From: Candidatus Melainabacteria bacterium 17Bon1m
GTDB lineage: Bacteria > Cyanobacteriota > Vampirovibrionia > Obscuribacterales > Obscuribacteraceae
Assembly (NCBI GenBank): GCA_032128875.1
Contig: JAVLKG010000003.1
Coordinates: forward strand, 641,008-705,007
DNA length: 64,000 nt
Direction of reading: 5' to 3'
In this document: positions 27,688 through 48,175 of the stretch, one piece after another
How the letters are laid out: each line of letters begins with the position of its first letter
How positions within the stretch are numbered: position 1 is the stretch's first letter
Program-made: the position numbers and the translations under genes
Notes under the pieces: generated by a model
Seen by the model: only the letters and a program-made list of their open reading frames with translations
Database searches by the model: none
Told to the model about the DNA's origin: nothing

Positions 27688-28653
27688 TTATTGCACAACT
27701 GGGATGACTTCAGCTGAGTTTTCTCGCTCTGCGAGCAAGCTCAAGAGGTTCTTTTCAATGGTCATAGATATCTCGTCCAACGGCAGATGGCTGAGATTGT
27801 GGACGTTGAACGGGTTCTGCAGTTCTACCCCGAGTTGATCAAGTGAGAAAAGAGGGTAGGCGACGAGCATCGTCACTAAAGGGACGAGAAAAAAATTGTC
27901 CAGAGAGTGCAGAAGCGCGAATGGCAAGGTAAGTACAAACAATGCAATAAATCTGCGAATCTTTATGGAGTACGCCTGAGCTAATGGCGTCTTCAATATT
28001 CGCTCGCAGGCGCCGATATGATCTATCAGCTGCGCACGTTCTCGATCGACTTGCATGTAGGCGAAGCTGTCAATGTCTCCTTTTTCTAGCGCTTCTTTCA
28101 GAAGCAATCCTAGATTCAAGGAGATTGTGCTCGGCGGATGGCGCGTATCCAAAATTTGTGAAGCCGTCTGCGGACCTAGAAGCGCATTTAACTCTTTGGA
28201 AGAATTTTGTCCCCGCAAGACTAGTCTCGCCGAATGCGGAAACGAAGCGGCTAAGCGCACAAATTTCTCGCGCCACGTTTGGTCTTGTGGTCCGTAAGCT
28301 AGCGCAGAAATCGTGATGTTGCGAGACTGGTTGACTATGCCGCCCCAAAGCTTTCTTGCTTCCCACCAGCGGTCATATCCAGCATTTGTTCTTAATACCA
28401 ACAGCAATCCCAGTGCGGTTCCAATGAACTCGTAAGGAGTCAATTCAAGTGAAAGTCGGACGCCTAGGTATTTTTGCGTCAGTGCCGCTACCGCACAGAT
28501 GAGCGAAGCCACCACTCCGACAGTGAGCACGTTCGGCAACACGTGCGGAGTAATTGATCCTTGTATGGCAAAGGCATCAAACCAAAATGATTCCCACTTG
28601 CTGCTAGATGACGCTGTTGAGGGAAAGTCTTGGTTTTGAGATTGCTGTGACAT
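27688..28653 (-). CDS. Bestrophin-family anion channel
   Basis: LRTNAGYDRWWEARKLWG, GACERILKTP, ELQNPF..LPLD; GGAGG SD lies inside upstream CA gene. Confidence 0.93.
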   Translation of the reverse strand: MSQQSQNQDFPSTASSSSKWESFWFDAFAIQGSITPHVLPNVLTVGVVASLICAVAALTQKYLGVRLSLELTPYEFIGTALGLLLVLRTNAGYDRWWEARKLWGGIVNQSRNITISALAYGPQDQTWREKFVRLAASFPHSARLVLRGQNSSKELNALLGPQTASQILDTRHPPSTISLNLGLLLKEALEKGDIDSFAYMQVDRERAQLIDHIGACERILKTPLAQAYSIKIRRFIALFVLTLPFALLHSLDNFFLVPLVTMLVAYPLFSLDQLGVELQNPFNVHNLSHLPLDEISMTIEKNLLSLLAERENSAEVIPVVQ

Positions 28654-29281
28654 CAGAAGCCTCCAATATTTCAGCAAACTGACCAGATTTGCTGTCATAA
28701 CTAAAAACTTGTCCTGTCTCGATTTTGTATGTCCATCCGTGCAGGTTGATCTCGCCTCGAGACAATTTCACAGCCACTGCTGGGTGCGTTTTCAAATTCT
28801 CTAATTGAACCAGAACGTTTTCCTGAATGGCGACATTGAGAAGCTCTTCAGCGTTCAAACCGGCGTCAATGTAATTTTCTTCGACAATGCGTCGAGTGGC
28901 TTCTGCGTGCGACAACCACGAAACTACACTCGGAAGTTTTTTGATTGATTCAAGATTGAGTAGCCCTTTTACCGCTCCGCACAGCGAATGTCCGCATACG
29001 ATAATGTCCTTGACGCCCAGACCCGCAATAGCGAATTCAATAGTAGCGCCTTCCCCACCGTTTGCTGCACCAAAAGGCGGAATTATATTGCCGGCATTTC
29101 TGAGAATAAAAAGGTCACCAGGCTGTGTCTGAGTGATGAGATTGGGATTTATCCTTGAATCGGAACACGTAATGAATAGAGCGTCCGGACTCTGTCCTTG
29201 CGCCAATCTTTCGAAGAGCTCCTGATGACTCTCAAAAACTCTAGATTGAAAGTGATGCAGACCCGTGATGAGTTTTTGCAT
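28604..29281 (-). CDS. Beta-class carbonic anhydrase
   Basis: CSDSR and GHSLCG zinc motifs, RNAGN. Confidence 0.96.
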   Translation of the reverse strand: MQKLITGLHHFQSRVFESHQELFERLAQGQSPDALFITCSDSRINPNLITQTQPGDLFILRNAGNIIPPFGAANGGEGATIEFAIAGLGVKDIIVCGHSLCGAVKGLLNLESIKKLPSVVSWLSHAEATRRIVEENYIDAGLNAEELLNVAIQENVLVQLENLKTHPAVAVKLSRGEINLHGWTYKIETGQVFSYDSKSGQFAEILEASDVTAISKPRLSLNSVI

Positions 29282-29456
29282 GTAAAGCTCCTTTACTACC
29301 TCTAAACGCCTACCCTTTTAGGAAGCCAAATATTGCGAACCCTTTTTACCGCTGACTCAAACTCGTGAGGCTCTGCCTGAAACGGTCCTGCAAATTGAAG
29401 TCCGCCGAGAATCCAAACAACCCGAGATTTCGAAAACGCATTGTTGCGAAGCTCAA

Positions 29457-29476
29457 ATATGCAAAAGTTTGCATGT
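29457..29476. promoter_or_regulatory. Putative ArsR operator upstream of CA-bestrophin
   Basis: ATATGCA-AAAGTT-TGCATGT within a 28-bp near-palindrome (to 29484) that overlaps the -10 of minus-strand TTGCGC-N18-TATATT. Confidence 0.65.
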
Positions 29477-29528
29477 TTGAATATAACATCTTTGCTGGCT
29501 GTTGCGCAAGTCTCCCCGCCCTGTAAGC

Positions 29529-31592
29529 TCAGTTAACTGATTTGTCCTTAAGGATGTACACTCCGCCTTCTTCAGCGGCAATGTATATGATTCCGTTTTT
29601 CGCCTCGATATCGGAAGCGGAAAGTGGTATCGCGCTGAGATCAACGGTGCCTACTAGTTTTGGATTTTTCGGGTTGCTGATGTCGACTGAGTTGACCTGC
29701 ATAAATCCTTGAACGTAGGCTCGGTTGCCTTCTATTTTCAATCTATCGGCCTGTTTGATTTTGATCGAGCTTACACGCTTCAATCTACCTGATGTGGTTC
29801 TGTCAAGGATGCTAAGTTCTCTGTCGCCCCAGATGCTGCCTTCCAGAACATACAGGTGTCGTGTATCAGTGTCGAGCGCAAATGCTTTTTGATCAATTTC
29901 TGTCTGTGCAATTTTTTTGAGGTGTTGGGGATCTTTGGTGTCGAAGACAAGGAGCAGCGTCTCTTTCGGTCCTGTATCCGTCACAACGTAGAGGAAGTCG
30001 TCATGAGCACTCAGAATATCCGCGCCTGTCTTGATCGGATGGAAGAAGCGCTGCGCGCCGGATTTTTTGAAGATATGTACACCGTCTTCTGCAGCAGTGA
30101 AAACATAGTTTTTATTGCAAGCTAATTCACGATTTGACTTATCTACCTTTTGCGACCATTTCTCTTTGAAGGTGCCATCTGGCTGCTTCTCCAGGAGGGT
30201 AGTCACTGTAATGCGTGAGCCTTTGGAAGGAAACCGCTCATCAGCAACGACAATGTCGGAGTCAGATTGGCACATTGCGCGCACCCCTTTGAAGTTCAAC
30301 GTTTGAACAGCGGGTGACGTCTTATCTTCTGGTTTTGAATGGAAAGACTGAACTTCAGATGGATTGGATGTCGCATATAGTGTTTCGTCCATAAGCGCCA
30401 GCATTTGCGCATCGCCGCCAAGATGGTGGCGTGACACCAAAAGTGGTGTAAATGGATCGCTTATGTCTACGATTGCGAGGTCACCGGCATTCGTCGTTGC
30501 ATACAGCTTTGTGCCTTCTACATCAAGGTCCACAATGCCCGTAATAACTGTGCTTGTGGATAATGTCTTTGGTTTTTTTCTATCGTGAATGTCAATAATC
30601 ATCAAACCTGAAGACGTGCCGATGAATGCAAATCCATTGCGAATCGTGGCGCCTGTCCCATACCAATATGCTGGAACATCAAGGCTTGATGCCAGTTGCG
30701 GCTTTTTTCCCTCGATACTAAGAATTGAAATTCCAGCATCCGGTGAATCTCCAGCTATTACGATCGTATTGCCTTCAACAGCGGCGGCTCCACGTCTAAG
30801 CCCACGTCCACCGGCTTTCCATTCGCCAAGTTTTACTGGGCTGCGTGGGTTTTTGATATCAAACAATCGCAATCCTTGATCTTCATCGATCACGCACAAG
30901 CGGTTAGCATCGATGCAAACATTCAATGCATCCAGGGTTTCCGAACTCTTTTCAGGCGTGTCCTTGAAACTAACAGTCGATGGAGAGGTCGGGTTCTTCA
31001 CATCAATGATTTCCAGCCCGTTCATTCCAGAGGCGATGTATGCGCACTCTGCACCGATAGCGACATTCTTTGGCGCAGCCATGTGTCCGTAGGCGGCAAC
31101 TTCGCGCGGTGAGTCCGGCTTGCTTACGTCGATTATTCGCAATCCGCCCCGCCCATTGCAGACGTATGCGAAATTGCGTTCTACTTTGATATTGCTGATT
31201 TGACCTAAGAGAAGGAGTGAGCCCACAGTTTCCACATGCTGCGGGTCTTGGATGTTTACTACCAGCATTGTTTCACCGGCGCCAATGTACGCGTATTTGC
31301 CTTCAACCGCGATTGCCGACAGTTTTCCGCCTTTCTGGGCGACCACGTCGATGTTCTTACTGGGCGGCAGGCGAGGGATGTCGAAGCGCTTCTGGCTAAA
31401 AATGTCGTAGCCGGTTATTAATTGTGTAAATGCAGCAAGGCGCCACAAACCGGCACTCTGCACGTATGCAGCGACCACGATGAACGCTGAAGCTGTCACC
31501 CACATCAATAGAAGGGGCGATATCCTTACGCGTCTTCCAGGCACCTTGGGCGCCGGTTGTGATACTTGCTCTTCCACAGAAGTGTCCTGCAA
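29529..31592 (-). CDS. LVIVD-repeat beta-propeller protein with N-terminal TM anchor
   Basis: Repeated 'GLRIIDVSKPDSP', 'GLEIIDVKNPTSP', 'LAIVDISDPFTP'. Confidence 0.9.
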   Translation of the reverse strand: MQDTSVEEQVSQPAPKVPGRRVRISPLLLMWVTASAFIVVAAYVQSAGLWRLAAFTQLITGYDIFSQKRFDIPRLPPSKNIDVVAQKGGKLSAIAVEGKYAYIGAGETMLVVNIQDPQHVETVGSLLLLGQISNIKVERNFAYVCNGRGGLRIIDVSKPDSPREVAAYGHMAAPKNVAIGAECAYIASGMNGLEIIDVKNPTSPSTVSFKDTPEKSSETLDALNVCIDANRLCVIDEDQGLRLFDIKNPRSPVKLGEWKAGGRGLRRGAAAVEGNTIVIAGDSPDAGISILSIEGKKPQLASSLDVPAYWYGTGATIRNGFAFIGTSSGLMIIDIHDRKKPKTLSTSTVITGIVDLDVEGTKLYATTNAGDLAIVDISDPFTPLLVSRHHLGGDAQMLALMDETLYATSNPSEVQSFHSKPEDKTSPAVQTLNFKGVRAMCQSDSDIVVADERFPSKGSRITVTTLLEKQPDGTFKEKWSQKVDKSNRELACNKNYVFTAAEDGVHIFKKSGAQRFFHPIKTGADILSAHDDFLYVVTDTGPKETLLLVFDTKDPQHLKKIAQTEIDQKAFALDTDTRHLYVLEGSIWGDRELSILDRTTSGRLKRVSSIKIKQADRLKIEGNRAYVQGFMQVNSVDISNPKNPKLVGTVDLSAIPLSASDIEAKNGIIYIAAEEGGVYILKDKSVN

Positions 31593-31670
31593 TACATCAC
31601 CGATTCAGCAGTAAGTTCTACTGAATAGATGTGATTTTTAGGCCACAGTTCCGTTTATCCGTTTATCGGG

Positions 31671-33503: not shown

Positions 33504-33505
33504 AT

Positions 33506-35574: not shown

Positions 35575-35594
35575 ATATTCAAAGTATTGCACAT
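35575..35594 (+). promoter_or_regulatory. Putative ArsR operator upstream of ABC-HlyD-TolC
   Basis: ATATTCA-AAGTAT-TGCACAT, 47 nt before ATG. Confidence 0.7.
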
Positions 35595-37441: not shown

Positions 37442-38851
37442 ATGGATTCAACTCAAATTCGCCAGATAGAAGATCTTTCGTACAAGGCTGATTACGAATC
37501 CCTCAAAGCAGTGACATCGCGCAGAGGCTACGCAGTCATTGCCGTCATGCTTTCCATAACCCTTGTTTCGTTTGTTCTAATGCTCGTCTATGTTCCCTGG
37601 CAACAAAGCGTTGCGGGCACTGGAAAGATCATTATTCTGTCTCCAATGCACAGACCTCACAACATAGAGGCTCCTATACCTGCGCGCTTGAAGCATTGGT
37701 ATGTAAGGGATGGGCAATTCGTAAAACAGGGTGAATTAATTGCTGAACTTTCTGATCTCGATCCGAAATTTCTTGATCCGGAGCAAGGTAAACGTATCAC
37801 TTTTCAAAAGCACGCTCTTCTTGCACGTAGAGGTGCCGCTTCAAACAGGTTCCATGCGTTGGAAAAACAATTGGATAGTCTTAAGCGATCACAGAATGCC
37901 GCTGTGCCCTCGGCTCGAGAACGCTCTCATCAAGCCAAGGATCGCATCTGGGCAGCAGAGCAGGGTGTTGAGGCCGCCAAACAAAATCAGTTAACAGCCA
38001 GGCTCAATCTTGACCGCATGCGAGAGCTGCATGAGAAAGGTTTGCGATCAAAACGCGACTTGGAGTTAGCAGAACTTGAACATACTCGCGGTATCACTGA
38101 CTTAGAGCGGGCACATGCAGCTCTTGATGTGGCGCGGCGCGATCAGACAGTGGCAGTACTGGAACAGGAAAAAATTGTCGCGGATACTGATGCGACAATG
38201 AGCAGCATTGCTGCTGCAATGGCCGCGGCGCAAGAGACAATAGAGTCGACTTCAAGTGAGATTTACAAGCTCGATATTGAGTTACAAAATGTCAGTGCAA
38301 GGCACGAACAGCGCAAAGTTTTCGCGCCGTCTTCCGGGAAAATAGTACGGCTACTAACAGTAGGAGCCGGTGAGACTGTTGATGCAGGAATGGTGCTAGC
38401 AGTCATCGCTCCAGAAACACAAGATCTTGCTGCCGAACTGACTATTAGTGACAACGACGCGCCGCTCGTTGCTGTCGGCAGACCGGTGCGATTGCAATTC
38501 GCCGGCTGGCCTGCGTTGCAATTCTCCGGCTGGCCCTCAATTGCGGTTGGCACATTCGGTGGACGCATAGCTGTTATCGATGCTGTTGATGACGGACGGA
38601 ACAGTTATCGCGTTATTGTCAAACCCGATGCAGATGCGATCGCCAACGGAAAAGACGAGCCTTGGCCCGATGCCAGATTTCTCAGGCCTGGTGCTGAGGT
38701 AAGCGGCTGGATCATGCTGGACACCGTCAGTCTTGGCTTTGAGTTGTGGAGGCAATTCAACGCGTTTCCTCCAACTGTCAAACCGGAGGAACTTGGATTG
38801 CACAAAACATCTCAAGGCGATAAGGCAGAAATCAAACGCAAATCGAAGTGA
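37442..38851 (+). CDS. HlyD-family membrane fusion protein
   Basis: TM anchor, lipoyl-like halves, coiled coil, 'VRLQFAGWPALQFSGWP', 'ELWRQFNAFPP'. Confidence 0.93.
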   Translation: MDSTQIRQIEDLSYKADYESLKAVTSRRGYAVIAVMLSITLVSFVLMLVYVPWQQSVAGTGKIIILSPMHRPHNIEAPIPARLKHWYVRDGQFVKQGELIAELSDLDPKFLDPEQGKRITFQKHALLARRGAASNRFHALEKQLDSLKRSQNAAVPSARERSHQAKDRIWAAEQGVEAAKQNQLTARLNLDRMRELHEKGLRSKRDLELAELEHTRGITDLERAHAALDVARRDQTVAVLEQEKIVADTDATMSSIAAAMAAAQETIESTSSEIYKLDIELQNVSARHEQRKVFAPSSGKIVRLLTVGAGETVDAGMVLAVIAPETQDLAAELTISDNDAPLVAVGRPVRLQFAGWPALQFSGWPSIAVGTFGGRIAVIDAVDDGRNSYRVIVKPDADAIANGKDEPWPDARFLRPGAEVSGWIMLDTVSLGFELWRQFNAFPPTVKPEELGLHKTSQGDKAEIKRKSK

Positions 38852-38864
38852 GGATTACGAAGTA

Positions 38865-40346
38865 ATGCGTTTGAGTCAGAAATTATTGAACTCGATAATA
38901 TTTCCAATCTCATTTTGTGCGGTGCTAGCCAACGCTGCATTGGCGCAAGACAGTCAGCTCCAAAATGTTCCTGTGCCGAGCAATTTAAGAGGCATAGGGC
39001 TTCAAGCGCCGGAAGGTAAAAGTTTCACGCTCGAACATTTCCTGAAGCTGGTCGAGAAAAATTATCCCAAGCTGTTGGCTGCCGATGCCGAGCGGAGAAT
39101 CTTCAGCGCCAAGCGTCTGGAAAAGGCGGGTGCGTTTGATCCTGTTTTAAGCAGTATCAATGAGTATTTGAGAGTTCAAGACACATTCATACCTGGCAAA
39201 GCAAAAGACGCTATTCACAATGAATCAAGAATAGATCTTCTGACGCGGTCAGGAATAAAAATATTTACCGGTATGCGCCTGAACCCAAATGACACGAAAA
39301 CACCTTTTGTGCCGACCGGTAAAAGCGGCGAGTATTTTGCCGGTGTTTCTGTGCCGTTGCTCAGAGGATTGGGCATCAACGAGAAAATCGCTGCTGAGTC
39401 GCAAGCCAAATTAGGTGAGCCCCTGGCATTGCAATTATTCGGCGCTACGCGACTGGAAGTTCTTCTCAAAGCGGCTGCAGTTTATTGGGATTGGGCAGGA
39501 GCAAAAGCTCGCGTTGATATTGCGCGAGATCTCCTTTCGATTGCTGAAGCCAGGGTCGGTCAGATCAAAGAACGTGTAAACAGCGGTGATCTTCCTGCTC
39601 TCGATATTGCCGAATCTGAGCAAGAAATTCACAGACGGCAGGCTGCTCTCGTCAAGCAAGAGCGTGAATTTCAAAAAGCATCACTGCTACTTTCTGTTTA
39701 TCTATGGGATGAAAATGGCGTTCCTCGTAATGTACCTGGTGTTGAGGACGTACCTGCTCTAAAGCCCGAGCCTCGTAAATTAGCGGACTCCGAATGGTTG
39801 GACGGACGCAAAATGGCGTTGGCACTTCGCCCAGAATTAAAGAAAATTGCTTTGGAGCGAGATCAAGTAAAAGTCGATTTGCGTCTTGCGGAAAACATGA
39901 TCCTTCCGTCGATGGATGCATACGTCTTGCAAGGCGCAGACACGGGTCCTCAGGGGATCGGTCCGATTGTCAGGGCGGGGGTGGCTGTTTCGGCTCCATT
40001 GAGGCAGCGAACCGCAAGAGGCCAGGCACAAGCTGCCAGACTGAAACTTCAAAAGCTAAATCTGGATGAGAAAGCCGAGAAATTGCGTATTCAAGCCGAG
40101 GTGGATGACACAGTTTCAGCCATAAATACTTCATATGAGCGGTGGGCTGCCACTATGGTTGAAGTGCAGAAAGCAAAGCAGGTGGAAAAGGGTGAGCGTT
40201 TGCGCTTTGGTGCGGGTGACAGCACTTTGTTTCTCGTCAATCAAAGAGAAAGAGCTTCTGCCGAAGCGCAGCTGCGACTGGCTGAGGTACATGTTGAATA
40301 TTTACAGTCCATGGCTGCTTTTCGTGCTGTCACTTGCAAACTATGA
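38865..40346 (+). CDS. TolC-family outer-membrane channel
   Basis: Signal peptide, 'GAFDP', 'RF.AGDSTLFLVNQRE'. Confidence 0.92.
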   Translation: MRLSQKLLNSIIFPISFCAVLANAALAQDSQLQNVPVPSNLRGIGLQAPEGKSFTLEHFLKLVEKNYPKLLAADAERRIFSAKRLEKAGAFDPVLSSINEYLRVQDTFIPGKAKDAIHNESRIDLLTRSGIKIFTGMRLNPNDTKTPFVPTGKSGEYFAGVSVPLLRGLGINEKIAAESQAKLGEPLALQLFGATRLEVLLKAAAVYWDWAGAKARVDIARDLLSIAEARVGQIKERVNSGDLPALDIAESEQEIHRRQAALVKQEREFQKASLLLSVYLWDENGVPRNVPGVEDVPALKPEPRKLADSEWLDGRKMALALRPELKKIALERDQVKVDLRLAENMILPSMDAYVLQGADTGPQGIGPIVRAGVAVSAPLRQRTARGQAQAARLKLQKLNLDEKAEKLRIQAEVDDTVSAINTSYERWAATMVEVQKAKQVEKGERLRFGAGDSTLFLVNQRERASAEAQLRLAEVHVEYLQSMAAFRAVTCKL

Positions 40347-40379: not shown

Positions 40380-40399
40380 ATATGCTAATGTTTGCAAAA
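40380..40399 (+). promoter_or_regulatory. Putative ArsR operator and promoter of arsR1
   Basis: ATATGCT-AATGTT-TGCAAAA overlapping -10 of TTGACT(40357)-N18-TATGCT. Confidence 0.6.
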
Positions 40400-40418: not shown

Positions 40419-40805
40419 ATGCCCTACAGAGCAGTTGTGAGCGCGGAGTTGGCAAAGCTCTTCAATGTGCTTTCGCACCCGGTTCGCATTCGAATAATTG
40501 AAGAGTTGAAGAAAGAAGATCTCGCTGTGGGCACACTGAAAGATATTCTTGGTATTACGCACTCTGCTGTTTCTCAACAACTTGCTGTGTTGAGAAGCCA
40601 TCACCTGGTCGTCGAGATGCGTCAGGGGCGGAATGTTTTCTATCATCTGAGAAAGCCGGAACTTGCTCAGTGGATTATGCAAGGAGTTGGTTTTATCTCA
40701 CCAGACACAACGGAAGTAGAAGATTTGATGTCTGCTATTCAGAACGTCAAGACTGTTTGGGGTGATGAAACTCCTCAGCCTAAGCGAAAAAAACGCGGCG
40801 CCTGA
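40419..40805 (+). CDS. ArsR/SmtB-family repressor (no cysteine)
   Basis: LSHPVRIRII..SAVSQQLAVLR..RQGRNVFY. Confidence 0.93.
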   Translation: MPYRAVVSAELAKLFNVLSHPVRIRIIEELKKEDLAVGTLKDILGITHSAVSQQLAVLRSHHLVVEMRQGRNVFYHLRKPELAQWIMQGVGFISPDTTEVEDLMSAIQNVKTVWGDETPQPKRKKRGA

Positions 40806-41195
40806 TTATTTCTCTCTAGCCTCTTTTGAGCGAACCTTTTCTTTTTCATCCGACCAATGATTAATAGCCCTCTGGGCCGCTGACTTGAGTAAATTGGATT
40901 CTGAATCGTCAGGGACGATAAGTGGAATTCCTTCAATCAGCCATGTTGCAATTTCAGGTGATGCCAGCCGGTACAAAATGTTGCGGCCGTCTCGTCTTTC
41001 TTTTATTAGTCGCTGCGACTTAAGCAGCGCGAGATGTTGCGAGACTGCGGATTGTCTAATGCCGAGAATGTCCTGAAGCGAATTAACACATAGCTCGCCT
41101 GCCCTCAGCTCGACAATGATGCTGATTCGCACAGGATGGGACAGAGTTGAATACATCGCTGCAAGCTGTTGCGCAATCAAAGCTCTATGAGGCAT
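40806..41195 (-). CDS. ArsR/SmtB-family repressor paralog (single Cys, ELCV)
   Basis: LSHPVRISII..ELCV..SAVSQHLALLK..RDGRNILY. Confidence 0.93.
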   Translation of the reverse strand: MPHRALIAQQLAAMYSTLSHPVRISIIVELRAGELCVNSLQDILGIRQSAVSQHLALLKSQRLIKERRDGRNILYRLASPEIATWLIEGIPLIVPDDSESNLLKSAAQRAINHWSDEKEKVRSKEAREK

Positions 41196-41224: not shown

Positions 41225-41244
41225 ATGTGCAAGTATATGAATAT
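41225..41244 (-). promoter_or_regulatory. Putative ArsR operator upstream of arsR2
   Basis: Minus strand ATATTCA-TATACT-TGCACAT. Confidence 0.7.
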
Positions 41245-41344: not shown

Positions 41345-41372
41345 TTGACAAAAGTCTTCGATCCGCTATACT
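41345..41372 (+). promoter_or_regulatory. Sigma70-type promoter of pseudo-murF/dab operon
   Basis: TTGACA-N16-TATACT. Confidence 0.7.
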
Positions 41373-41393: not shown

Positions 41394-41413
41394 ATATTCA
41401 AACATTTGCAAAT
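41394..41413 (+). promoter_or_regulatory. Putative ArsR operator upstream of pseudo-murF/dab operon
   Basis: ATATTCA-AACATT-TGCAAAT. Confidence 0.75.
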
Positions 41414-41427: not shown

Positions 41428-42399
41428 ATGAGTGCAACTTTTACAGCTGAAGAAATTCTCTGCGCAACCGGAGGACATTTGAAATCAGGATTCGTCGACG
41501 AAAGACGAGGTCGGCTGACGTGGGACATAGAAGAGGTAAGGCCCGGTGATTGGTTTATATGCATACCCTCTCAATTTGATGATCCACACGACAGGCTCGG
41601 TTTGGCATTCGATAGGGGAGCTCTGGGTGTAATAGTCAATCGGCGCAGTCGTTTTTCGTCGGCTTCGAAGGATGCGACTATCATTTCGGTTTCTGATACA
41701 AAGACAAGCATCCTTGAGCTTGCACGCTACTGGCGTTATCGTGTTCAGCCTAAAGTCGTCGGCGTGTCTGGCAGTTGCGGTCGGCGAGTGACTGTTGCTC
41801 TTCTCAGCCGGCTGCTCGAGGGCACTCAAAAAATTCATGTCGCTTTTATGAACAATCTCGGTTGGTTCTCTTGCCTGGAGGATGTTCTTTCCATGCCGGA
41901 AGATACTGAGGTCTTGATCTTCGAAGCCGGAGGAGTAGAAAGAGGCGATGTCAGCCGCATAGGTGGTTGTCTAGATCCTGATCTGGCTGTCTTGACGCGA
42001 GTTGCTCATCCGCTTCCATCCGCAGAGCGTGATGCATTTATTGCATCGCTCTACTGCGAAATACTAGAGACTCTGCCTAATGGCTCTTCTGAGAAGCTTA
42101 GTGCTGTGATTTACGATGATAATTCTGCGGTCCAAAAGCGAGTAGAAGAACTGTTCGATGATCCTAACGTGAAGAGGCGTTCGCTGAGCGGAGCTGGAAT
42201 GTCTGGAAGATTGTCGGAAGCTTCGCTTAAAGAGTTGAGTGCAACCATGGAATCGATTTTTGCACAACATGTTACGCAGGCAGAAATCTGGTGCGCAATA
42301 GAAGCGGCATCTGCTCTGGGAGCTACAGAGTTTGAGATAGAAGAGCTTTTCGAGTTGCAAAATGATTCATGCGACGCTCAATTGAGCCTACTGAAATGA
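41428..42399 (+). CDS. Truncated, degenerate MurF-like Mur-ligase-fold protein
   Basis: MurF-like N and central domains; P-loop GSCGRRVT; no C-terminal domain. Confidence 0.8.
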   Translation: MSATFTAEEILCATGGHLKSGFVDERRGRLTWDIEEVRPGDWFICIPSQFDDPHDRLGLAFDRGALGVIVNRRSRFSSASKDATIISVSDTKTSILELARYWRYRVQPKVVGVSGSCGRRVTVALLSRLLEGTQKIHVAFMNNLGWFSCLEDVLSMPEDTEVLIFEAGGVERGDVSRIGGCLDPDLAVLTRVAHPLPSAERDAFIASLYCEILETLPNGSSEKLSAVIYDDNSAVQKRVEELFDDPNVKRRSLSGAGMSGRLSEASLKELSATMESIFAQHVTQAEIWCAIEAASALGATEFEIEELFELQNDSCDAQLSLLK

Positions 42400-42430: not shown

Positions 42431-43927
42431 ATGATGAACACGCAGTTTCTTGTTGCAAATGAGCTGGCGGCACTTCTCGCCGCGCCCCTAGCTCTTCTTC
42501 TAAGTTGTTTGGCGACCATTACGTGGAAAACGCGAATACTCATATTTGGTCAGATTGCTGCTTTCAGCTTTGCATTTTTTGGTCTTTCATGGGGTTTGAT
42601 TAATCCATCTCTTGTGCCATCTGCGGCAATGCTCAAGCATTTGCCGTTCAATTTGGATGTTGCCTCGTGTTGCTTGCTTACTGCTATCACATTCATTGCA
42701 GCGGTTGTGCTCTCGTTTAGTGATCGATACTTGCTTGGTGACGCTCATCGGCTGAGTTTTTTGCGACTGCTTGCATTTATGTCGTCGTGCGCAGCGCTGT
42801 TGAGTGTAAGTGACAGTATATGCTTAGCATTTGTTTGTTGGAATGCACTTTCTTTGGGACTCTGGGCAATTATGCGATTGCACTCTGAGTCTAAAGAGTT
42901 CTCAAATGTTGTTCTCGGCTACCACTTGCTTAGCGACCTCGGGTTGCTCGTTGCACTAGTACTGATTGTCGGAGGCACTGAAAGCACACAATTTAGCAAT
43001 TTAACCAGCGCGTCCTTTTCTTTGACGCAGACAATCAATCAGTCGACAAGCTTGGTGGCTTGCTTGCTTCTGGTCCTCTCTTTCGGCATAAAGTCAGCGC
43101 TTTTCCCCTTTCACCGATGGTTGCTGGCTACATTGAATGCCCCCACTCCGCTGTCTGGTTTTTTGCATGCCGGCGTGGTGAATGTTTCAGCGATCATGGC
43201 CTGGCGATTAATGCCGATACTTCATGAACAAACAGAAATTCTCCTCTTCTGGGGGTTATGGTCGGCTGTTTCGGCGATTGTGGGAACTCTCGGCATGTCT
43301 GCCCAGCCGGATGTAAAACGCAAACTGGTTTACTCAACTGCAGGTCAGATGGGTTTTATGTCTCTGCAATGTGCTGTGGGCGCTCCTGGAGCGGCCCTTT
43401 TCCATTTGATTGCTCATGGACTCTTCAAATGTCAGATGTTCCTTCAATCAGGAAGTGCGGTGGCAGAAGGATTGAACAGTAGGAAATTCGCCTATGGGCT
43501 GCAGGATGGTAGTGAAGGAAAAGGTCTGAAAAATCTGCTGATTGTCGTAACCGTGGCTCTGGCCTTTGTCTGTTTCTATACGACATGCATCGACTTCGAT
43601 TGGACGTCGCTGTCAGCTGCAATAACAGCTGCGGCCATTCTGTGTGCGATTCCTGCTCTGGACCGAGTTGATATGAGGTCTCTTTGTTTATTTTTGCTGA
43701 CCACATTACTGTTCGGAGTTGCGACCGGGTTTGGGCGTCGCTTCTTCGAAGGGCTTTTACCCGCAGAATACGCGATAAATGAATGGCTTCTACCTGGTTT
43801 TTTGCTCCTCGCTCTGGCGCTTGCATTTGCCCTGCACATCGCTCGAAGAAGCAGCATTTCCAGGGCCTTATACGTGCACAGCCTGAATGGATTTTATTTG
43901 GGCGAAGTGGAATTGAGCCGTAAGTAA
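42431..43927 (+). CDS. dabB: DAB inorganic carbon transporter membrane subunit (NuoL/ND5-like)
   Basis: KSALFPFHRWL..APTPLSGFLHAG, YSTAGQMGF, HLIAHGLFK; adjacent to dabA, no other nuo genes. Confidence 0.9.
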   Translation: MMNTQFLVANELAALLAAPLALLLSCLATITWKTRILIFGQIAAFSFAFFGLSWGLINPSLVPSAAMLKHLPFNLDVASCCLLTAITFIAAVVLSFSDRYLLGDAHRLSFLRLLAFMSSCAALLSVSDSICLAFVCWNALSLGLWAIMRLHSESKEFSNVVLGYHLLSDLGLLVALVLIVGGTESTQFSNLTSASFSLTQTINQSTSLVACLLLVLSFGIKSALFPFHRWLLATLNAPTPLSGFLHAGVVNVSAIMAWRLMPILHEQTEILLFWGLWSAVSAIVGTLGMSAQPDVKRKLVYSTAGQMGFMSLQCAVGAPGAALFHLIAHGLFKCQMFLQSGSAVAEGLNSRKFAYGLQDGSEGKGLKNLLIVVTVALAFVCFYTTCIDFDWTSLSAAITAAAILCAIPALDRVDMRSLCLFLLTTLLFGVATGFGRRFFEGLLPAEYAINEWLLPGFLLLALALAFALHIARRSSISRALYVHSLNGFYLGEVELSRK

Positions 43928-43952
43928 ATATTGGAAAACTACAGGAGGCATA

Positions 43953-46403
43953 ATGAAAAGCACTCAGATAAGCCGGTCTCAATCACTCAGCGACGCGATT
44001 GGCGATGCGTCGAATTGCATCGCTCCGTTATATCCACTTACCAATTTCATCGCTGGCAATGCTCTGAAGGGTCTTGAAGAAATTCCTTTTGCGTCGGCGA
44101 TGCGGCAGGCTGCTCATCTTTTCGGTGCTCATGGTTTTCTTCTGCTGTCAGAGTATCGCGCGATGTATGAATACGGGCGTATTTCTCCAGCCAATCTCGA
44201 GGAAGCTTTTCTGAGAAAGCACGAAAGTGAAACTGCTCAGCAAGATTCAGAAAAAGAAATTCTCACGTTAGCGGAAATGCTTGACCGCACGAGCGGTTCG
44301 AAAGTTGTAGCCGCTATTAACAGTCAAATGGTGAAGTGGTGTGCGGCTTATTCAGATCGGACACAGGCTCCGTGGAAAGCTTGCAGAAAAGATGATCTGT
44401 ATATCTTTTGGCGAGATTTAGCTAAGTACGATCTTTCGCTTTCTTTTCACGGTGTCAAAGATTGGACTCAAACAATTGCTTCAATGCCTGAGAAGGCGGA
44501 AGACGCTTTAGAAGCGCTTCTAAATGCGCTTGACGTGAGAGGAGAAAACATCTCGCCGTATTTGAGAAGGCATTTAGTTGAGATGCCTGGCTTTGCTAGT
44601 TATTTCAAGTGGCGCGAACAAGAAGGGCATGATCAAGGAGTCTTGTGCGCTTATTTGGCAATTAGGCTGTGCTACGAGAAAGTTTTGTCGCAACCTGTTG
44701 CACGTCGTTTATACAAATCTGATGATCTGGGACTGGTCAGACCCTTGCTTGAATTAGAAACGCTTGCCAAAAAGGCACCGCCTGCTAGCGAAGACTATGG
44801 ACCGGTCTGGCAAGAAGCCTATGAGCTGAATTATCGCGACAGACTTTTGTCTTTGTTGGATAACAAAACGCGAAGCAGCACGGACTCGAAGTGCCAGATG
44901 ATCTTCTGCATCGACGTTCGTTCTGAGCCTATCAGGCGAGAGTTGGAAAGATGTGGACCATATACGACTTATGGCTTTGCCGGATTTTTCGGTATGCCTA
45001 TGAGGATGAGTGAATTGGGAAGCGCCCTTTCAATTGATCTGTGCCCTGTTCTATTGAAGCCTGAGCGTGAAGTTAGAGAAAGCGCGGTCGGTTTATCTGC
45101 GACAAAACGCATAAGCTGGCAAGCTCTGCGAGTGTCCGCTCTGCAATTGAAAAAGAAGCTCAAATGTAATCTTTCCGGTGCCTTCGGACTTGTTGAGATG
45201 TTGGGAATTTTCTCCGCCGTGCCTCTTGCTCTGAAAACATTCTTCCCCTCTCTTGCGAAGAGGATGTGGAATCGTATCGAGTCTAGTGTCGCTGCTGATG
45301 TCCGTACAAGTCTTGATTTGACGAATTTTTCGCTTGAGGAAAAAGTTGCCCTGGCGCAGAGGGCTGTCAAAGGAATCGGTCTGGAGAACTTCGGCGAACT
45401 GATAGTTCTTTGCGGTCACAGAAGTACTTCAACTAACAACCCATTTGCTTCCTCGCTTGACTGCGGTGCGTGTGGTGCCAATGCCGGTGGATTCAGTGCA
45501 CGTTTGGCGGCCGACGTTTTAAACGATTCTGAGGTCCGGGGTGAGCTGATGGTTAGAGGTTTGATAATTCCCGACCGGACGCATTTCATTGCCGCAGAGC
45601 ATGATACGACAACCGATCTGTTTATGTTTTTCGATTGCGACGATTTGTCGCAACAGCATACAGAGATTCTCGATAAGCTCAGATTTGATCTGGTTTGCGC
45701 TGGGGATGAGGTTCGGCGAAGACGAGCGGAGCGCCTGCCTCAGAGTAGTTTGCCCAAATTCGACGATCCACTCGAGCGTTCTTGTGATTGGGGGCAGATA
45801 GCACCAGAATGGGGACTCGCCGGCAATGCCGCTTTTGTCGCCGCTCCCCGGTCCGTGACAAAGCATGCTGACCTAGAAGGAAGGGTATTCCTACATTCAT
45901 ATGAATACAGCACAGATAGTGATGGACAGATCCTCGAGTTGATTATGACAGCACCGCTGGTAGTGGCGCAGTGGATCAATATGCAATATTACCTGTCTAC
46001 CGTTGATAATAAAGTTTTTGGCAGTGGAAGTAAGGTCTTTCATAATGTAGTCGGTGACTTTGGCGTCATGCAAGGCGCACATAGCGATCTGAGGATGGGC
46101 TTGCCGCTCCAATCTGTGGTGACTGAGTCCGGTGTTTTTCATGAGCCGATGCGCTTGCTTGCTGTAATTCGAGCTCCTCTGAGCGCTATAGATTCTGTTC
46201 TAGATAAGCACCATGATGTGCGTAAGCTGGTAGCCAATCGTTGGATTCGATTAGTAGCACTAGAGCCGCAGAGCGGTGAGTTTTTCGAAGCCGAGGATAG
46301 CGGATCGTGGAGACGAATAAACTTTCAATCTCAAGCTGCAAGCGCGGGTTTAGCCGGTCTCTCTGAGGAAGCTTGTGTCGCACGCCAGTCAATACTTCGG
46401 TAA
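43953..46403 (+). CDS. dabA: DAB inorganic carbon transporter soluble subunit (DUF2309, beta-CA-like)
   Basis: FCIDVRSE, GFAGFFG, CGH..NNP..LDCGACG, DWGQIAPEWGLAGNA, WINMQYY. Confidence 0.95.
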   Translation: MKSTQISRSQSLSDAIGDASNCIAPLYPLTNFIAGNALKGLEEIPFASAMRQAAHLFGAHGFLLLSEYRAMYEYGRISPANLEEAFLRKHESETAQQDSEKEILTLAEMLDRTSGSKVVAAINSQMVKWCAAYSDRTQAPWKACRKDDLYIFWRDLAKYDLSLSFHGVKDWTQTIASMPEKAEDALEALLNALDVRGENISPYLRRHLVEMPGFASYFKWREQEGHDQGVLCAYLAIRLCYEKVLSQPVARRLYKSDDLGLVRPLLELETLAKKAPPASEDYGPVWQEAYELNYRDRLLSLLDNKTRSSTDSKCQMIFCIDVRSEPIRRELERCGPYTTYGFAGFFGMPMRMSELGSALSIDLCPVLLKPEREVRESAVGLSATKRISWQALRVSALQLKKKLKCNLSGAFGLVEMLGIFSAVPLALKTFFPSLAKRMWNRIESSVAADVRTSLDLTNFSLEEKVALAQRAVKGIGLENFGELIVLCGHRSTSTNNPFASSLDCGACGANAGGFSARLAADVLNDSEVRGELMVRGLIIPDRTHFIAAEHDTTTDLFMFFDCDDLSQQHTEILDKLRFDLVCAGDEVRRRRAERLPQSSLPKFDDPLERSCDWGQIAPEWGLAGNAAFVAAPRSVTKHADLEGRVFLHSYEYSTDSDGQILELIMTAPLVVAQWINMQYYLSTVDNKVFGSGSKVFHNVVGDFGVMQGAHSDLRMGLPLQSVVTESGVFHEPMRLLAVIRAPLSAIDSVLDKHHDVRKLVANRWIRLVALEPQSGEFFEAEDSGSWRRINFQSQAASAGLAGLSEEACVARQSILR

Positions 46404-47277
46404 GAGAGCCATCCTGGGCACCATGCACAAAAAGGCTGAAGCTTTGACTTTACCCTTTAAGGTTGGTCTGGGAATGGAGCTGCAGACCTGTGAATTCGAC
46501 ACTGACCAGTTGGGGACATTTACAGGTGAGATAGAGAGGCAGGGCAGTGCGGTCGAGACTGCTGGAAAGAAAGCTCGATTGGCAATGTGCAAGACCGAAG
46601 AACCGCGCGGGCTTGGCAGTGAAGGTAGTTTTGGACCGCATCCCCTCATTCCGTATATGGCCTTAAGTCAGGAATTTCTTGTTCTTGTCGATGATGAGTT
46701 GGAAATTCAGGTAGCAGAGAGCGTCGTGACAACCAGGACAAATTACTGTCACACAGAGGTAAATTGCGTCGATGAGACTGAAGAATTTTTGCACCGTGCA
46801 AAATTTCCTTCTCATGCGCTCATCGTAAAGCCTGTCAAAAGCCAATCATCCGTTTTTGACAATGTCAAAAGACTATTCAGCGGGCAGGTCGTGACGTCGC
46901 AGATCTATAAGGGAATTCGAGACAGGGACTCTCTGGCATGTGCAATTCGCACTTGTCGGCAGCATTCCTCTTCTGGGCGCGTTCATATCGAGACTGATAT
47001 GCGAGCGCACATGAATCCAACAAGGATGCGCGTATTAAGGTCATTAGGTATTAAGTTGGTTAGGCGTTTGCTCTCTTCTTGTCAGGCGTGTGGCTGTCCG
47101 GGTTTTGGAATTTCAGGACAAGACGGAAATCTTCCCTGTGAGGAATGCGGCTTTCCATCGGATGCCTATGCTCAAGAGTTGCATTCCTGTCCTCGCTGCC
47201 AATTTACAAAAACACTGCCGCGAAGCGACGGGCTCACTTATGTGGAGGCTCTCTTTTGTCAGCGTTGCAATCCTTGA
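46375..47277 (+). CDS. DUF6671-family protein with C-terminal CxxC zinc ribbons
   Basis: TMHKK, DTDQLGTFTGEIER, SEGSFGPHP, ETDMRAHMNPTRM, four CxxC; overlaps dabA stop. Confidence 0.85.
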   Translation: MSHASQYFGKRAILGTMHKKAEALTLPFKVGLGMELQTCEFDTDQLGTFTGEIERQGSAVETAGKKARLAMCKTEEPRGLGSEGSFGPHPLIPYMALSQEFLVLVDDELEIQVAESVVTTRTNYCHTEVNCVDETEEFLHRAKFPSHALIVKPVKSQSSVFDNVKRLFSGQVVTSQIYKGIRDRDSLACAIRTCRQHSSSGRVHIETDMRAHMNPTRMRVLRSLGIKLVRRLLSSCQACGCPGFGISGQDGNLPCEECGFPSDAYAQELHSCPRCQFTKTLPRSDGLTYVEALFCQRCNP

Positions 47278-47371
47278 TAAAGGAGTAATTAAGTCGCACA
47301 CCTAAGGATATCGCTGGAGCCCTTGTGGCTCGCTAACCGTATCGGTCTTAATGGAGGAGTGAGTTAATTAA

Positions 47372-48175
47372 ATGGATAAGAATCTCAAAGACCTGGAGAA
47401 CGAAAGCATATTTATCATCAGAGAGGCTTATGCAAAGGTGAAGGATCTGGCTTTGCTCTGGTCTATGGGAAAAGATTCTACCGTCCTTCTGCATCTCGTG
47501 AAAAAGGCCTTCATGGGTCACTGCCCTATCCCCTTGGTACATGTGGACGAGAGTTATGAACCAGAGGAAATGACAAACTGGAGAGATGATTACGTGAAGA
47601 GGCATGGATTGCGCCTCATCGTTGGACAAAACAAGCAAGCTCTCGCCGATGGCATGGGTCCTCACAAGGGTCGGCTTGTTTGTTGCAATGCACTAAAAAC
47701 AGTCGCCTTACATCAGACGGTGAAAGAGCGCAAAATTCAGGCGCTTCTCGTCGGCATCAGACGGGATGAAGAAGGATCTCGCGGAAAAGAACGCGTTGTA
47801 TCCCCCAGGTCGGCCGGCGGCGAGTGGATGTATAAGGATCAGCCGGCTGAAATTTGGAACTACTACAACTTGCATGCGCCGAAGGATGTTCATCTGCGTG
47901 TTCATCCTATTCTGCACTGGACGGAGCTGGCGATTTGGGAGTACATACTCAGCGAATCTATTGAAGTTATTCCGCTATATTTCTCTCGAAACGGTATGCG
48001 TTATCGTAGTCTTGGATGTGCGCCTTGCACAGGTGCATTCCCTTCGGAGTCGTCTAGTGTTGAAGAGATCATCGAAGAGCTTAAGCTCTCTAATGACTCC
48101 GAGAGAGCTGGCAGAGCTCATGATCAAGAAGAAATGTATGCCTTGCAGAAGCTGCGAAAAACGGGCTTTATGTAA
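47372..48175 (+). CDS. cysD: Sulfate adenylyltransferase subunit 2-like PP-loop protein
   Basis: LENESIFIIRE, SMGKDS, GIRRDEEGSRGKER, RSLGC, ERAGR. Confidence 0.85.
   Translation: MDKNLKDLENESIFIIREAYAKVKDLALLWSMGKDSTVLLHLVKKAFMGHCPIPLVHVDESYEPEEMTNWRDDYVKRHGLRLIVGQNKQALADGMGPHKGRLVCCNALKTVALHQTVKERKIQALLVGIRRDEEGSRGKERVVSPRSAGGEWMYKDQPAEIWNYYNLHAPKDVHLRVHPILHWTELAIWEYILSESIEVIPLYFSRNGMRYRSLGCAPCTGAFPSESSSVEEIIEELKLSNDSERAGRAHDQEEMYALQKLRKTGFM

Follow-up and report, generated by a model that had tools for sequence, protein, structure and literature searches.

A candidate ArsR-controlled regulon for bicarbonate supply in an Obscuribacter-like bacterium

The window analyzed here, a stretch of 64,000 nucleotides (nt) from the genome of an Obscuribacter-like bacterium (G000:C3:641008-705007; assembly G000 of 7.55 Mb, i.e., 7,554,073 bp, in 35 contigs, 93% complete), carries between positions 27688 and 48175 genes for a β-carbonic anhydrase (CA) and a bestrophin, for an ABC-HlyD-TolC exporter, for two ArsR-type proteins (ArsR1 and ArsR2) and for a MurF-like protein, the subunits DabB and DabA of a DAB-type inorganic-carbon pump, a DUF6671 protein and a CysD. 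We consider it reasonably probable that this interval represents a small, locally ArsR-repressed regulon, which supplies cytoplasmic bicarbonate in a non-photosynthetic, Rubisco-less host. All genes were identified by an open reading frame (ORF) listing combined with Pfam/NCBIfam profile scans of the window proteins (Table 1).

According to the proposed mechanism, ArsR1, ArsR2 or both would bind an imperfect palindrome of ~20 bp with the core ATATKCAAA-N3-TTGCA, which in each of four to five units either covers the promoter or lies a short distance downstream of it. The units repressed in this way would be the β-carbonic anhydrase, here together with the bestrophin anion channel, the exporter, arsR1 and arsR2 themselves (autoregulation), and murF-like, dabB, dabA and DUF6671, probably on into the second cysD of the genome. 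Release of the repressors by a small-molecule effector would then raise the cytoplasmic bicarbonate supply: DabBA would hydrate CO2 vectorially, the carbonic anhydrase would equilibrate CO2 and bicarbonate, and the P-loop-degenerate MurF derivative, the ITPase-fold zinc-ribbon protein DUF6671 and the CysD paralogue might act on or regulate this supply. In the accessible parts of the respective reports, DAB/MpsAB is described to supply bicarbonate in heterotrophs (PMC8552792, PMC11394868), and the Bacillus subtilis operon ndhF-mpsB-canC to contain a β-carbonic anhydrase next to DAB, with these systems being redundant bicarbonate suppliers for growth in air (bioRxiv 10.64898/2026.09.08.750065). 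Hence, neither the occurrence of DAB in heterotrophs nor that of DAB and carbonic anhydrase in one operon is new. Since DAB/MpsAB and carbonic anhydrase are alternative or redundant bicarbonate suppliers for heterotrophs in air, a supply-raising direction of the regulation is supported. Our best guess for the effector is low inorganic carbon, although we hold this guess tentatively and with less than even confidence.

Among named organisms, those closest in their MurF-like gene are metagenome-assembled genomes labelled Candidatus Obscuribacter, Obscuribacterales, Obscuribacteraceae or Melainabacteria, which represent the non-photosynthetic sister lineage of cyanobacteria. A genome-wide search for the RuBisCO large subunit, a family whose controls give a signal in 5 of 14 known genomes, yielded no match in G000, so that the host is, within the 93% completeness of its assembly, a probable heterotroph. 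The same had been proposed in a preliminary description of the locus from the lack of Rubisco genes in the window and thus holds on the scale of the genome.

A shared operator and its conservation

Upstream of each of the five units lies the 17-nt word ATATKCWWANNNTTGCA, which is one half of an imperfect palindrome and was fitted to these five sites. Exact matches to this word occur five times on both strands of the 7,554,073 bp, all of them inside the window; with one mismatch allowed, 21 matches are found genome-wide, six of which are located in the window. The five sites (operators A to E in Table 1) align as ATAT(G/T)C(A/T)(A/T)A-N3-TTGCA, which forms the more strongly conserved portion of an imperfect inverted repeat. 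In its idealized form, this repeat reads ATATGCAAAT followed by ATTTGCATAT, with the consensus having been read by eye from the collected sites. Because the word was fitted to the five sites, a leave-one-out test was performed, in which 21-nt weight matrices were built from four sites and the fifth was ranked among ~15.1 million positions. The left-out operators reached the genome-wide ranks 22, 14, 6, 36, and 5. The preliminary description had reported a palindrome shared by all five units and had named a motif frequent throughout the genome as an observation that would speak against it; the palindrome is present at all five units, and the fitted word has no other exact occurrence in the genome. 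The position of operators C and E at the promoters fits repression, the promoters themselves being putative as matches to consensus hexamers only.

Relatives were located via their DabA match and then mapped by tblastn with the window proteins. Among them, G011, whose DabA shares 89% identity, shows full colinearity across the interval, including a 95.5% identical bestrophin, and contains exactly five exact operator matches genome-wide, which are the five orthologous sites, while a reversed-pattern control gave none. G008 (DabA 72%) carries TolC, arsR1, arsR2, murF-like, dabB, dabA, DUF6671 and cysD on one contig. Its three exact operators precede arsR1, the carbonic anhydrase and the ABC gene and are found on three contigs, with one-mismatch sites before arsR2 and murF-like. 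The ABC gene of G008 adjoins a YfhO gene and not the neighbours seen in the window, but the operator is kept. In the loci L037 and L040, the order is ABC-HlyD-TolC-arsR1-arsR2-murF-like-dabB-dabA-DUF6671, with operators before ABC and arsR1 and another one after DUF6671; in L040, the latter adjoins a marginal Pro_CA ORF (26.1 bits vs. 25.7). On metagenome contig L051, which holds the same gene families, DUF6671 and cysD form a separate unit with its own one-mismatch operator 160 nt upstream, and exact operators precede arsR1 and ABC. G025, a member of another family of the order, shows arsR, an operator in perfectly palindromic form, and then murF-like-dabB-dabA-DUF6671, and G017 two divergent arsR genes with an exact operator and, after these, murF-like and a larger dabB-dabA of a second type. 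In G014, which belongs to another genus, dabA-dabB-arsR is followed by a divergent ABC-HlyD-TolC set with DUF6671 just beyond TolC, and no murF-like gene is present. Operator sites before arsR or murF-like genes were furthermore found in G022, L035, L039, L087, and L124, in addition to G025, L037, L040, L051, and G017. The arrangement arsR-murF-like-dabB-dabA-DUF6671(-cysD) recurs across Obscuribacterales.

Metagenome contigs were scanned with a DUF6671 alignment, by which 592 relatives were confirmed; all counts for 80 loci given below refer to the best 80. These loci, most of them with short flanks, were compared by tblastn with the window proteins (coverage of at least 30%, E 1e-6 or better). 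In the 47 loci with longer flanks, ORFs were called greedily, and 138 neighbours at the positions -2, -1, and +1 were compared with Pfam. The 80 loci (704 kb, including three genome loci) contained no operator with up to one mismatch except for L051, L087, and L124, which are the metagenome loci carrying the arsR and exporter genes of the window. The survey of gene neighbourhoods that had been suggested as a check thus returned partners recurring with dabA, both in Obscuribacterales and in distant metagenome loci.

It might be argued that the shared motif is no ArsR operator but an element of the promoters or a site recognized by some other factor, and that the genes, without being controlled in common, cluster because they share their descent within a mobile or island-like segment. 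The motif is AT-rich, overlaps -10-like hexamers, and its binding by ArsR proteins is a prediction; in addition, all supporting genomes belong to one order, so that conservation could partly reflect shared descent. Nevertheless, we regard this explanation as very unlikely. The motif adjoins arsR genes in every relative genome examined, including G017 and G025 with their differing surroundings, and is kept at the carbonic anhydrase and ABC units on other contigs and in other contexts, as seen for the ABC gene beside YfhO in G008. The exact motif is absent from the other four β-carbonic anhydrase genes of the genome, and the GC content across the region is unremarkable (0.46-0.50). Size and half-site style of the inverted repeat also match what we take to be typical of SmtB and CzrA operators. 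Two further exact matches of the pattern, one inside an 840-amino-acid ORF (G025:C9) and one between a PAS/HisKA kinase and an unrelated ORF (G017:C4), are probably chance matches.

Candidate repressors, inorganic-carbon proteins and exporter

ArsR1 and ArsR2 are paralogues with about 46-47% identity, and the solved structure nearest to ArsR1 is SmtB (E 1.3e-12). Inverted-repeat operators at 40380 and 41228 precede both arsR genes and are kept in relatives, with binding to them being predicted. Like SmtB, CzrA, and NolR, both proteins possess a winged-helix core, are encoded beside their putative targets and have an inverted-repeat operator at their own promoter, which would be in line with autoregulation. 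In contrast to these regulators, they show neither visible α3N/α5 metal ligands nor a Cys pair, carry an additional C-terminal helix with an invariant Trp and are encoded as two paralogues arranged tail to tail. The C-terminal extension forming this extra helix is conserved in both groups (invariant Pro95, Ala106, and Trp114). ArsR1 and seven aligned orthologues contain no cysteine, whereas ArsR2 and its orthologues have a single conserved one within ELCVNSL, which keeps only the first Cys of what is presumably the canonical arsenite site, ELCVCDL. By inspection of the aligned orthologues, no His/Asp/Glu cluster was seen after the wing in either protein. None of the recognized sensing sites (α3/α3N Cys cluster, α5 His/Asp/Glu, BigR-type Cys pair) was found at the positions known for them. 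The second-best NCBIfam match of both proteins is the sulfite-sensing BigR model, far below its cut-off, and BigR-like persulfide or BigR/SqrR-type dithiol sensing is ruled out by the cysteine content.

DabA, which is encoded by a single gene in G000, aligns over residues 11-787 with DabA2 of PDB 9rd0 (9rd0_A, E 4.8e-109), and the stretches FCIDVRSE and GH…DCGAC are kept. These stretches presumably carry the zinc ligands C351/D353/H524/C539, which agrees with the intact ligands noted in the preliminary description. The gene for DabB, a NuoL/Mrp-type protein, is located immediately upstream. By analogy, energy-coupled CO2 hydration can be predicted for the pair. Pro_CA matches were obtained five times in the genome, the carbonic anhydrase of the window being one of them.

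The order of a NuoL-like followed by a DabA-like subunit in a heterotrophic host is shared with MpsAB(C) of Staphylococcus aureus and ndhF-mpsB-canC of B. subtilis. Unlike in the latter, the carbonic anhydrase of the window lies ~12 kb from the DAB operon and is tied to it by the operator only. As far as the accessible descriptions show, neither system includes genes for MurF-like, DUF6671, CysD, ArsR or a TolC-type exporter. The term “repressor” is likewise absent from the B. subtilis preprint (bioRxiv 10.64898/2026.09.08.750065), and the accessible material names none for MpsAB. In the CO2-concentrating mechanisms of the chemoautotrophs Halothiobacillus neapolitanus and Thermithiobacillus, CO2 is hydrated vectorially by DAB2 and DAB1. 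Compared to these, DabA aligns and DabB is adjacent, but the window lacks a Rubisco or carboxysome context and its operon encodes three extra soluble proteins. DabC defines DAB1 according to the accessible part of a recent report (PMC13684180), and no small DabC-like ORF was noted between or beside dabB and dabA in the ORF/Pfam listing.

The exporter is encoded by three consecutive genes forming, according to Pfam, a type I secretion-like tripartite set. Its ABC protein is HlyB/PrtD-like, with alignments to peptidase-bearing models starting after the first ~130 model positions. All type I secretion models (TIGR01846, 210.7 vs. 725.55; TIGR01842, 195.4 vs. 510.15) stayed below their cut-offs, as did those for HlyD (TIGR01843, 76.9 vs. 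208.65) and TolC (TIGR01844, 28.7 vs. 225.15) and the NCBIfam bacteriocin ABC models, and no gene for a presumed substrate was identified. In the genus sample (12 genomes besides G000), an ABC orthologue with at least 66% identity was present in six of seven DabA-positive and in none of five DabA-negative genomes. The single DabA-positive genome lacking it is G001, which is 77% complete and split into 830 contigs. As these genomes are kin and many of them are incomplete, the counts are descriptive and do not constitute a test. In G007, a single contig carries ABC, DUF6671, and DabA within 15 kb of each other, ABC lies ~4 kb from DabA in G005, and a 45%-identical ABC is found 4.3 kb from a DabA in G040, a member of another family of the class. 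The conserved coupling of the exporter to DAB is the least explained part of the regulon.

These observations might also suggest a stress or efflux response centered on the exporter and the ArsR proteins and triggered by a toxic compound or envelope stress, with DAB and carbonic anhydrase serving pH or membrane-potential homeostasis instead of carbon acquisition. ArsR/SmtB regulators typically control the efflux of what they sense, and “membrane-potential-generating” was the original reading of MpsAB. In line with this, the exporter is followed by arsR1 in all cases, its presence or absence within the genus goes along with that of DAB, DabB belongs to the NuoL/Mrp-type subunits that translocate protons, and Na+/H+ exchangers adjoin DUF6671 in 2 of the 47 scanned loci (L092 and L098). 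However, DUF6671 accompanies three unrelated inorganic-carbon classes (DabBA, SbtA/PII, and β-carbonic anhydrase) across lineages, which points to inorganic carbon and not to efflux. Outside of window-like gene sets, a similar ABC-HlyD pair near dabBA-DUF6671 was found in only 1 of the 80 loci (L076), and DAB is treated as a vectorial CO2 hydratase in the accessible part of structural and genetic work (PMC13684180). A response of this kind is therefore unlikely in our view.

As a separate observation, the distant metagenome locus L076 (8038-12900) contains dabB-dabA-DUF6671, an ammonium transporter and then ABC (34% identical) and HlyD (33% identical). It may represent a second, independent neighbourhood of DAB and exporter.

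DUF6671, the MurF-like protein and CysD

The DUF6671 family comprises 5292 relative clusters and has the invariant motifs DTDxxGTF, KAR, SEGSFGPxP, and TDMRAxxNPxR, four CxxC pairs and a C-terminal CNP. In an AlphaFold2 prediction from 27 sequences (pLDDT 88.4), the protein is modelled with a Ham1/ITPase/YjjX/Maf-like fold, into which a subdomain is inserted, and carries two CxxC…CxxC zinc ribbons at its C-terminus. Foldseek gave weak matches to ITPase, YjjX, RdgB, and Maf (best 2j4e_A, E 3.5e-4, TM 0.41 to target). VIA-align returned Ham1/XTPase 1vp2_A (Z 13.1; 138 residues, root-mean-square deviation 3.7), 3brc_B (Z 12.3), YjjX 1u5w_A (Z 12.0), PH1917 (Z 11.4), S. aureus Ham1 (Z 11.1), ITPA 2i5d_A (Z 10.9), and Maf entries (Z 9.0-9.3, including 4heb_A with Z 9.0). 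The alignments with Ham1-group entries comprise ~130-145 residues spanning model residues 5-244. DUF6671 would thus share the fold of the Ham1/RdgB/ITPA, YjjX, and Maf NTP pyrophosphatases, but differs from them by a sequence identity of 8-16%, the two zinc ribbons and an insert (residues 121-210), for which separate matches to ATP-grasp B domains were obtained (Z 7-9). An ESM Atlas search excluding its own family gave no usable match. The modelled fold is of a nucleotide-binding type, which suggests that DUF6671 may bind nucleotides.

Within the fetched flanks of the 80 DUF6671 loci, dabA was found in 20, dabB in 17, and cysD in 7 cases, and at least 27 of the 80 contain at least one of DabA, SbtA, and β-carbonic anhydrase. 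Among the neighbours scanned in the 47 loci, SbtA stands beside DUF6671 in L070, L071, L077, L102, L120, and L129, followed in L120 and L129 by a PII protein with DUF6671 directly after it, and β-carbonic anhydrase in L053 and L070. Isocitrate dehydrogenase is found beside or near DUF6671 in L052, L055, L056, L057, L097, and L119. PAPS_reduct proteins occur in L051, L067, L077, L095, and L109, all five being CysD by NCBIfam, the one of L067 only below cut-offs. Further neighbours are full-length Mur ligases (L079, L090), amidohydrolases (L074, L090, L099, L100), LarB-like AIRC proteins (L061, L062), Sua5 (L119), and NMT1-type binding proteins (L106, L128). In L090, an amidohydrolase, DUF6671, and a Mur ligase occur together, with dabB-dabA-cysD at a distance of 3 kb; this locus hence contains the family set of the window at 36-44% identity. 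The arrangement resembles in concept cyanobacterial SbtA-SbtB, in which a soluble nucleotide-binding accessory protein is encoded beside an inorganic-carbon transporter; SbtB binds adenine nucleotides. In the case of DUF6671, which directly follows SbtA-PII in two loci and stands beside SbtA in four more, binding is suggested by its predicted fold, which is Ham1/ITPase-like and not that of PII.

Two side observations concern the surroundings of DUF6671. An isocitrate dehydrogenase with a bacterial C-terminal domain is encoded 3 kb downstream of DUF6671 in L040 (19094-20587), a recurring link to a CO2-releasing enzyme. In L025 (G010:C91, 6723-11459), cysD is followed by another DUF6671 paralogue with 37% identity and by a GNAT acetyltransferase, then by operator-like sites at 8675 (two mismatches) and 8837 (one mismatch), and after these by three small ORFs without family assignment and a Mur ligase of full length (488 amino acids, GK P-loop).

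The MurF-like protein (323 amino acids) matches TIGR01143 over profile positions 2-218 of 418, i.e., the N-terminal domain and part of the middle domain. Neither Pfam Mur_ligase_C nor Mur_ligase_M was matched at E 0.001, and the whole C-terminal domain is missing. Its P-loop reads GSCGRR, with the Walker Lys being replaced by Arg in 27 of 27 family members (GxGR[R/Q/K]), in comparison to GKT in three of three full-length Mur ligases. The family comprises 52 relative clusters of 302-368 amino acids and at least 39% identity, after which the scores drop sharply to ordinary Mur ligases (E 1e-12); its organisms, where named, are Melainabacteria, Obscuribacterales or “Cyanobacteria bacterium.” The protein is therefore probably a lineage-restricted, conserved MurF derivative without ligase function, as judged from its sequence. 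The earlier label “pseudo-MurF” appears fair, given the missed murF cut-off, the lost P-loop Lys and the missing C-terminal domain. A second truncated MurF-like paralogue (304 amino acids, 28% identical, degenerate P-loop) is encoded at G000:C3:121763-122677 (L139:9764-10678), flanked by a nicotianamine-synthase-like gene and a DCC1-like oxidoreductase, with none of its neighbours being related to inorganic carbon. In this genome, truncated MurF derivatives thus also occur outside of the DAB operon.

CysD passes the NF003587 subfamily cut-off and contains the SMGKDS PP-loop motif, but remains below TIGR02039 (245.4 vs. 396.6) and NF009214 (255.2 vs. 413), as does the other CysD of the genome. 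The latter (268 amino acids, 68% identical; G000:C5:484.6-486.5 kb, L042 and L044) is followed by a CysN-like gene in a 627-amino-acid open frame, the best CysN-like match of the genome. Since the copy on C5 has the CysN-like neighbour and no cysN is present in the window, the cysD of the window is an extra, partner-less copy, as the earlier name “orphan CysD” had implied. It is the best-conserved gene of the cluster, with 80-97% identity in relatives compared to 45-86% for DUF6671. The 95-nt gap between DUF6671 and cysD contains no terminator-like or plus-strand promoter-like site, so that both genes are probably co-transcribed.

The close association of CysD and DUF6671 raises the question whether the regulon, while being real, could serve anion or sulfur homeostasis. 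Bicarbonate from DAB and carbonic anhydrase would then be a counter-ion or co-substrate for sulfate uptake or activation, CysD and DUF6671 would be its central components, and the exporter would dispose of a product related to sulfur or anions. cysD directly adjoins DUF6671 in G011, G008, G010, G001, L035, and L051, in the last of which the pair has its own operator, and the pair also occurs in distant loci together with DabA (L095) or SbtA (L077). Moreover, the cysD of L109 attains the equivalog cut-offs for CysD and those of L095 and L077 attain the subfamily cut-off, and among the scanned neighbours of L095 and L109 there is no cysN, DUF6671 taking the position after cysD. β-Carbonic anhydrase genes beside cysDN and carbonic anhydrases fused to SulP transporters are known from other bacteria. 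The BigR match of the ArsR proteins, though far below cut-off, would fit as well, but the dithiol sensing typical of BigR/SqrR is excluded by their cysteine content. Pfam/NCBIfam scans of the region furthermore detected no sulfate transporter, cysN, cysH or cysC, most DUF6671 loci are without cysD by tblastn (see above), and the operons of L037, L040, and G025 have no cysD match. Taken together, a primary role in sulfur or anion homeostasis seems rather unlikely.

Several points also weigh against a locally ArsR-repressed regulon for bicarbonate supply. Members of the ArsR/SmtB family are mostly known to sense metals, metalloids or persulfides, and we know of none that responds to CO2 or bicarbonate, so that another signal could govern the regulon. 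The fitted word is circular for its own five sites, independent support coming from the leave-one-out ranks and from relatives, which are kin. Exporter and CysD have no obvious role in carbon supply. In the class sample of 151 genomes, DUF6671 is present in 15 and DabA in 40; both occur in 13 genomes, in nine of them within 8 kb on one contig, which leaves 27 of the 40 DabA-positive genomes without DUF6671. Outside of the families f1 and f2, DUF6671 is found in none of 22 DabA-positive genomes, for which reason we regard it as a frequent but optional companion of inorganic-carbon systems and not as a DAB subunit. The carbonic anhydrase unit of G008 has the operator but no bestrophin match at this locus; bestrophin, although present in the carbonic anhydrase units of the window and of G011, is hence not a conserved member. 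Finally, we infer both operator binding and co-expression. Four runs of one sample, labelled as TRANSCRIPTOMIC RNA-Seq, contain near-identical contigs, but positions 27600-47599 are covered by pieces of 7 to 57 kb at flat depth, so that these runs behave like genomic DNA and are uninformative on transcription, operon ends or co-expression. They may derive from the source sample of the assembly. With regard to the integrated regulon proposed in the preliminary description, the genome-specific operator shared by five units beside two arsR genes, the orthologous sites and the recurrent partners speak for it, with bestrophin having to be removed from the conserved set.

Beyond the locus itself, it is conceivable, though doubtful in our estimation, that DUF6671, often with CysD and a Mur-ligase-type protein, is a widespread, so far unrecognized accessory module of unrelated types of inorganic-carbon uptake (DabBA, SbtA/SbtB, and β-carbonic anhydrase). 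It would act as a nucleotide-dependent enzyme or sensor that couples the supply of bicarbonate to the chemistry of nucleotides or of sulfate activation. In Obscuribacterales, this entire set would, together with the TolC-type exporter, be controlled by a new effector-sensing class of ArsR proteins without known metal or thiol sites, which may sense inorganic-carbon status.

Literature searches returned no publication under the names DUF6671 or PF20376 and none on Rv1284 together with cysD. Searches for ArsR with carbonic anhydrase and a bicarbonate transporter gave only unrelated work, and those on inorganic-carbon uptake in Obscuribacter none on this subject among the papers listed, both judged by titles and abstract openings. 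Also not found were an ArsR-type pair with a defined operator controlling DAB, a DAB link to a TolC-type exporter or to a MurF-derived protein, and an association of DUF6671 and CysD with DAB, SbtA or carbonic anhydrase loci, although supplements of DAB papers might contain such neighbourhoods. These results are consistent with the earlier statement that the combination is undescribed, except that DAB and β-carbonic anhydrase within one heterotroph operon are known from B. subtilis (bioRxiv 10.64898/2026.09.08.750065, accessible part). The literature examined, part of it accessible in excerpts, does not describe the regulation of DAB/MpsAB in heterotrophs or its soluble partners. With this locus, machinery for the uptake of inorganic carbon is documented for the non-photosynthetic sister lineage of cyanobacteria. 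The locus offers a defined operator with two candidate repressors and a genus-level presence/absence link between the DAB pump and a TolC-type exporter, for which there is currently no explanation. Regulation and accessory factors of bacterial inorganic-carbon uptake thereby become directly testable. DUF6671, being tied across lineages to three unrelated inorganic-carbon protein classes, is therefore a tractable target in the search for a step or regulator still missing from the picture of how bacteria acquire carbon.

Gene content of the interval and neighbouring features

All genes named in the preliminary description are present in the interval (Table 1). As the ORF of bestrophin overlaps the 3′ end of the carbonic anhydrase gene, its true start may be internal. 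Similarly, operator B lies inside the GTG-started ABC ORF, for which reason translation of the latter probably starts with the ATG at 35621.

Table 1. Coordinates of genes, predicted operators and promoter-like elements in the window, with operator sites kept in relatives.
Feature	Coordinates	Strand	Basis or position	Sites in relatives
Bestrophin_2	27688..28698	-	PF25539, 247.7 bits, profile positions 12-287 of 288; downstream of CA in CA unit	
β-carbonic anhydrase (Pro_CA)	28604..29281	-	PF00484, 157.5 bits, profile positions 1-156 of 156	
Operator A (predicted)	29457..29473	+	Upstream of CA-bestrophin unit; also on - strand at 29460 with one mismatch	G011, G008 C180
tRNA-Gly (anticodon TCC)	33654-33727	+	Between thioesterase and PALP dehydratase	
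ABC half-transporter (transmembrane domain-nucleotide-binding domain)	ORF from 35567, probable start 35621, to 37441	+	PF00664 and PF00005	
Operator B (predicted)	35575..35591	+	~30 nt before probable ABC start codon 35621	G011, G008 C302, L037, L040, L051
HlyD-family periplasmic adaptor	37442..38851	+	PF13437, PF13533, PF16576	
TolC/OEP outer-membrane duct	38733..40346	+	PF02321, two stretches, 98.5 bits	
Promoter-like TTGACT-18-TATGCT	40357-40386	+	Before arsR1; consensus match only	
Operator C (predicted)	40380..40396	+	Overlaps -10-like hexamer before arsR1	G011, G008, L037, L039, L040, L051; one mismatch in G022
arsR1 (ArsR/SmtB family)	40419..40805	+	NF033788, 79.4 bits vs. cut-off 55	
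arsR2 (ArsR/SmtB family)	40806..41195	-	NF033788, 86.9 bits vs. cut-off 55; tail to tail with arsR1	
Operator D (predicted)	41228..41244	-	Upstream of arsR2	G011; one mismatch in G008
Promoter-like TTGACA-16-TATACT	41345..41372	+	For murF-like operon; 11/12 consensus matches; consensus match only	
Operator E (predicted)	41394..41410	+	Starts 22 nt after -10-like hexamer, ends 18 nt before murF-like start codon	G011, L035, L039; one mismatch in G008, L124; two mismatches in G022
MurF-like	41428..42399	+	TIGR01143, 77.4 bits vs. cut-off 288.6; no Pfam match	
DabB/MpsA-like NuoL-type membrane subunit	42431..43927	+	PF00361 (Proton_antipo_M), 134.9 bits	
DabA/MpsB-like β-CA-like subunit	43953..46403	+	PF10070, 808.6 bits vs. 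cut-off 25, profile positions 3-747 of 747	
DUF6671	46375..47277	+	PF20376, 169.9 bits	
cysD	47372..48175	+	NF003587, 321.9 vs. 195	

In addition to the units named before, the interval also holds operator-free genes, which are located between the carbonic anhydrase unit and the exporter: an LVIVD propeller, hisC, a hotdog thioesterase, the tRNA-Gly, a PALP-dependent threonine/serine dehydratase and orf189. The last of these (34818-35387, minus strand, 189 amino acids, no family), which is divergent from ABC, was rejected as a regulon member due to its poor conservation (78 of 189 residues aligned in G011), and it is unrelated to the small ORFs adjoining operators in L037 and L040. An Rfam scan of positions 27000-49000 detected the tRNA-Gly alone and no riboswitch. 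Contigs of the RNA-labelled runs break or branch at this tRNA gene, with their loose ends at 33505-33730, which is to be expected of a tRNA sequence that is repeated.

Two genes without operator are kept in G008. The LVIVD-repeat β-propeller (687 amino acids, 29529-31592, minus strand) is situated between the carbonic anhydrase unit and hisC, and a KatG-type catalase-peroxidase (23819-26194, plus strand) is encoded upstream of the region.

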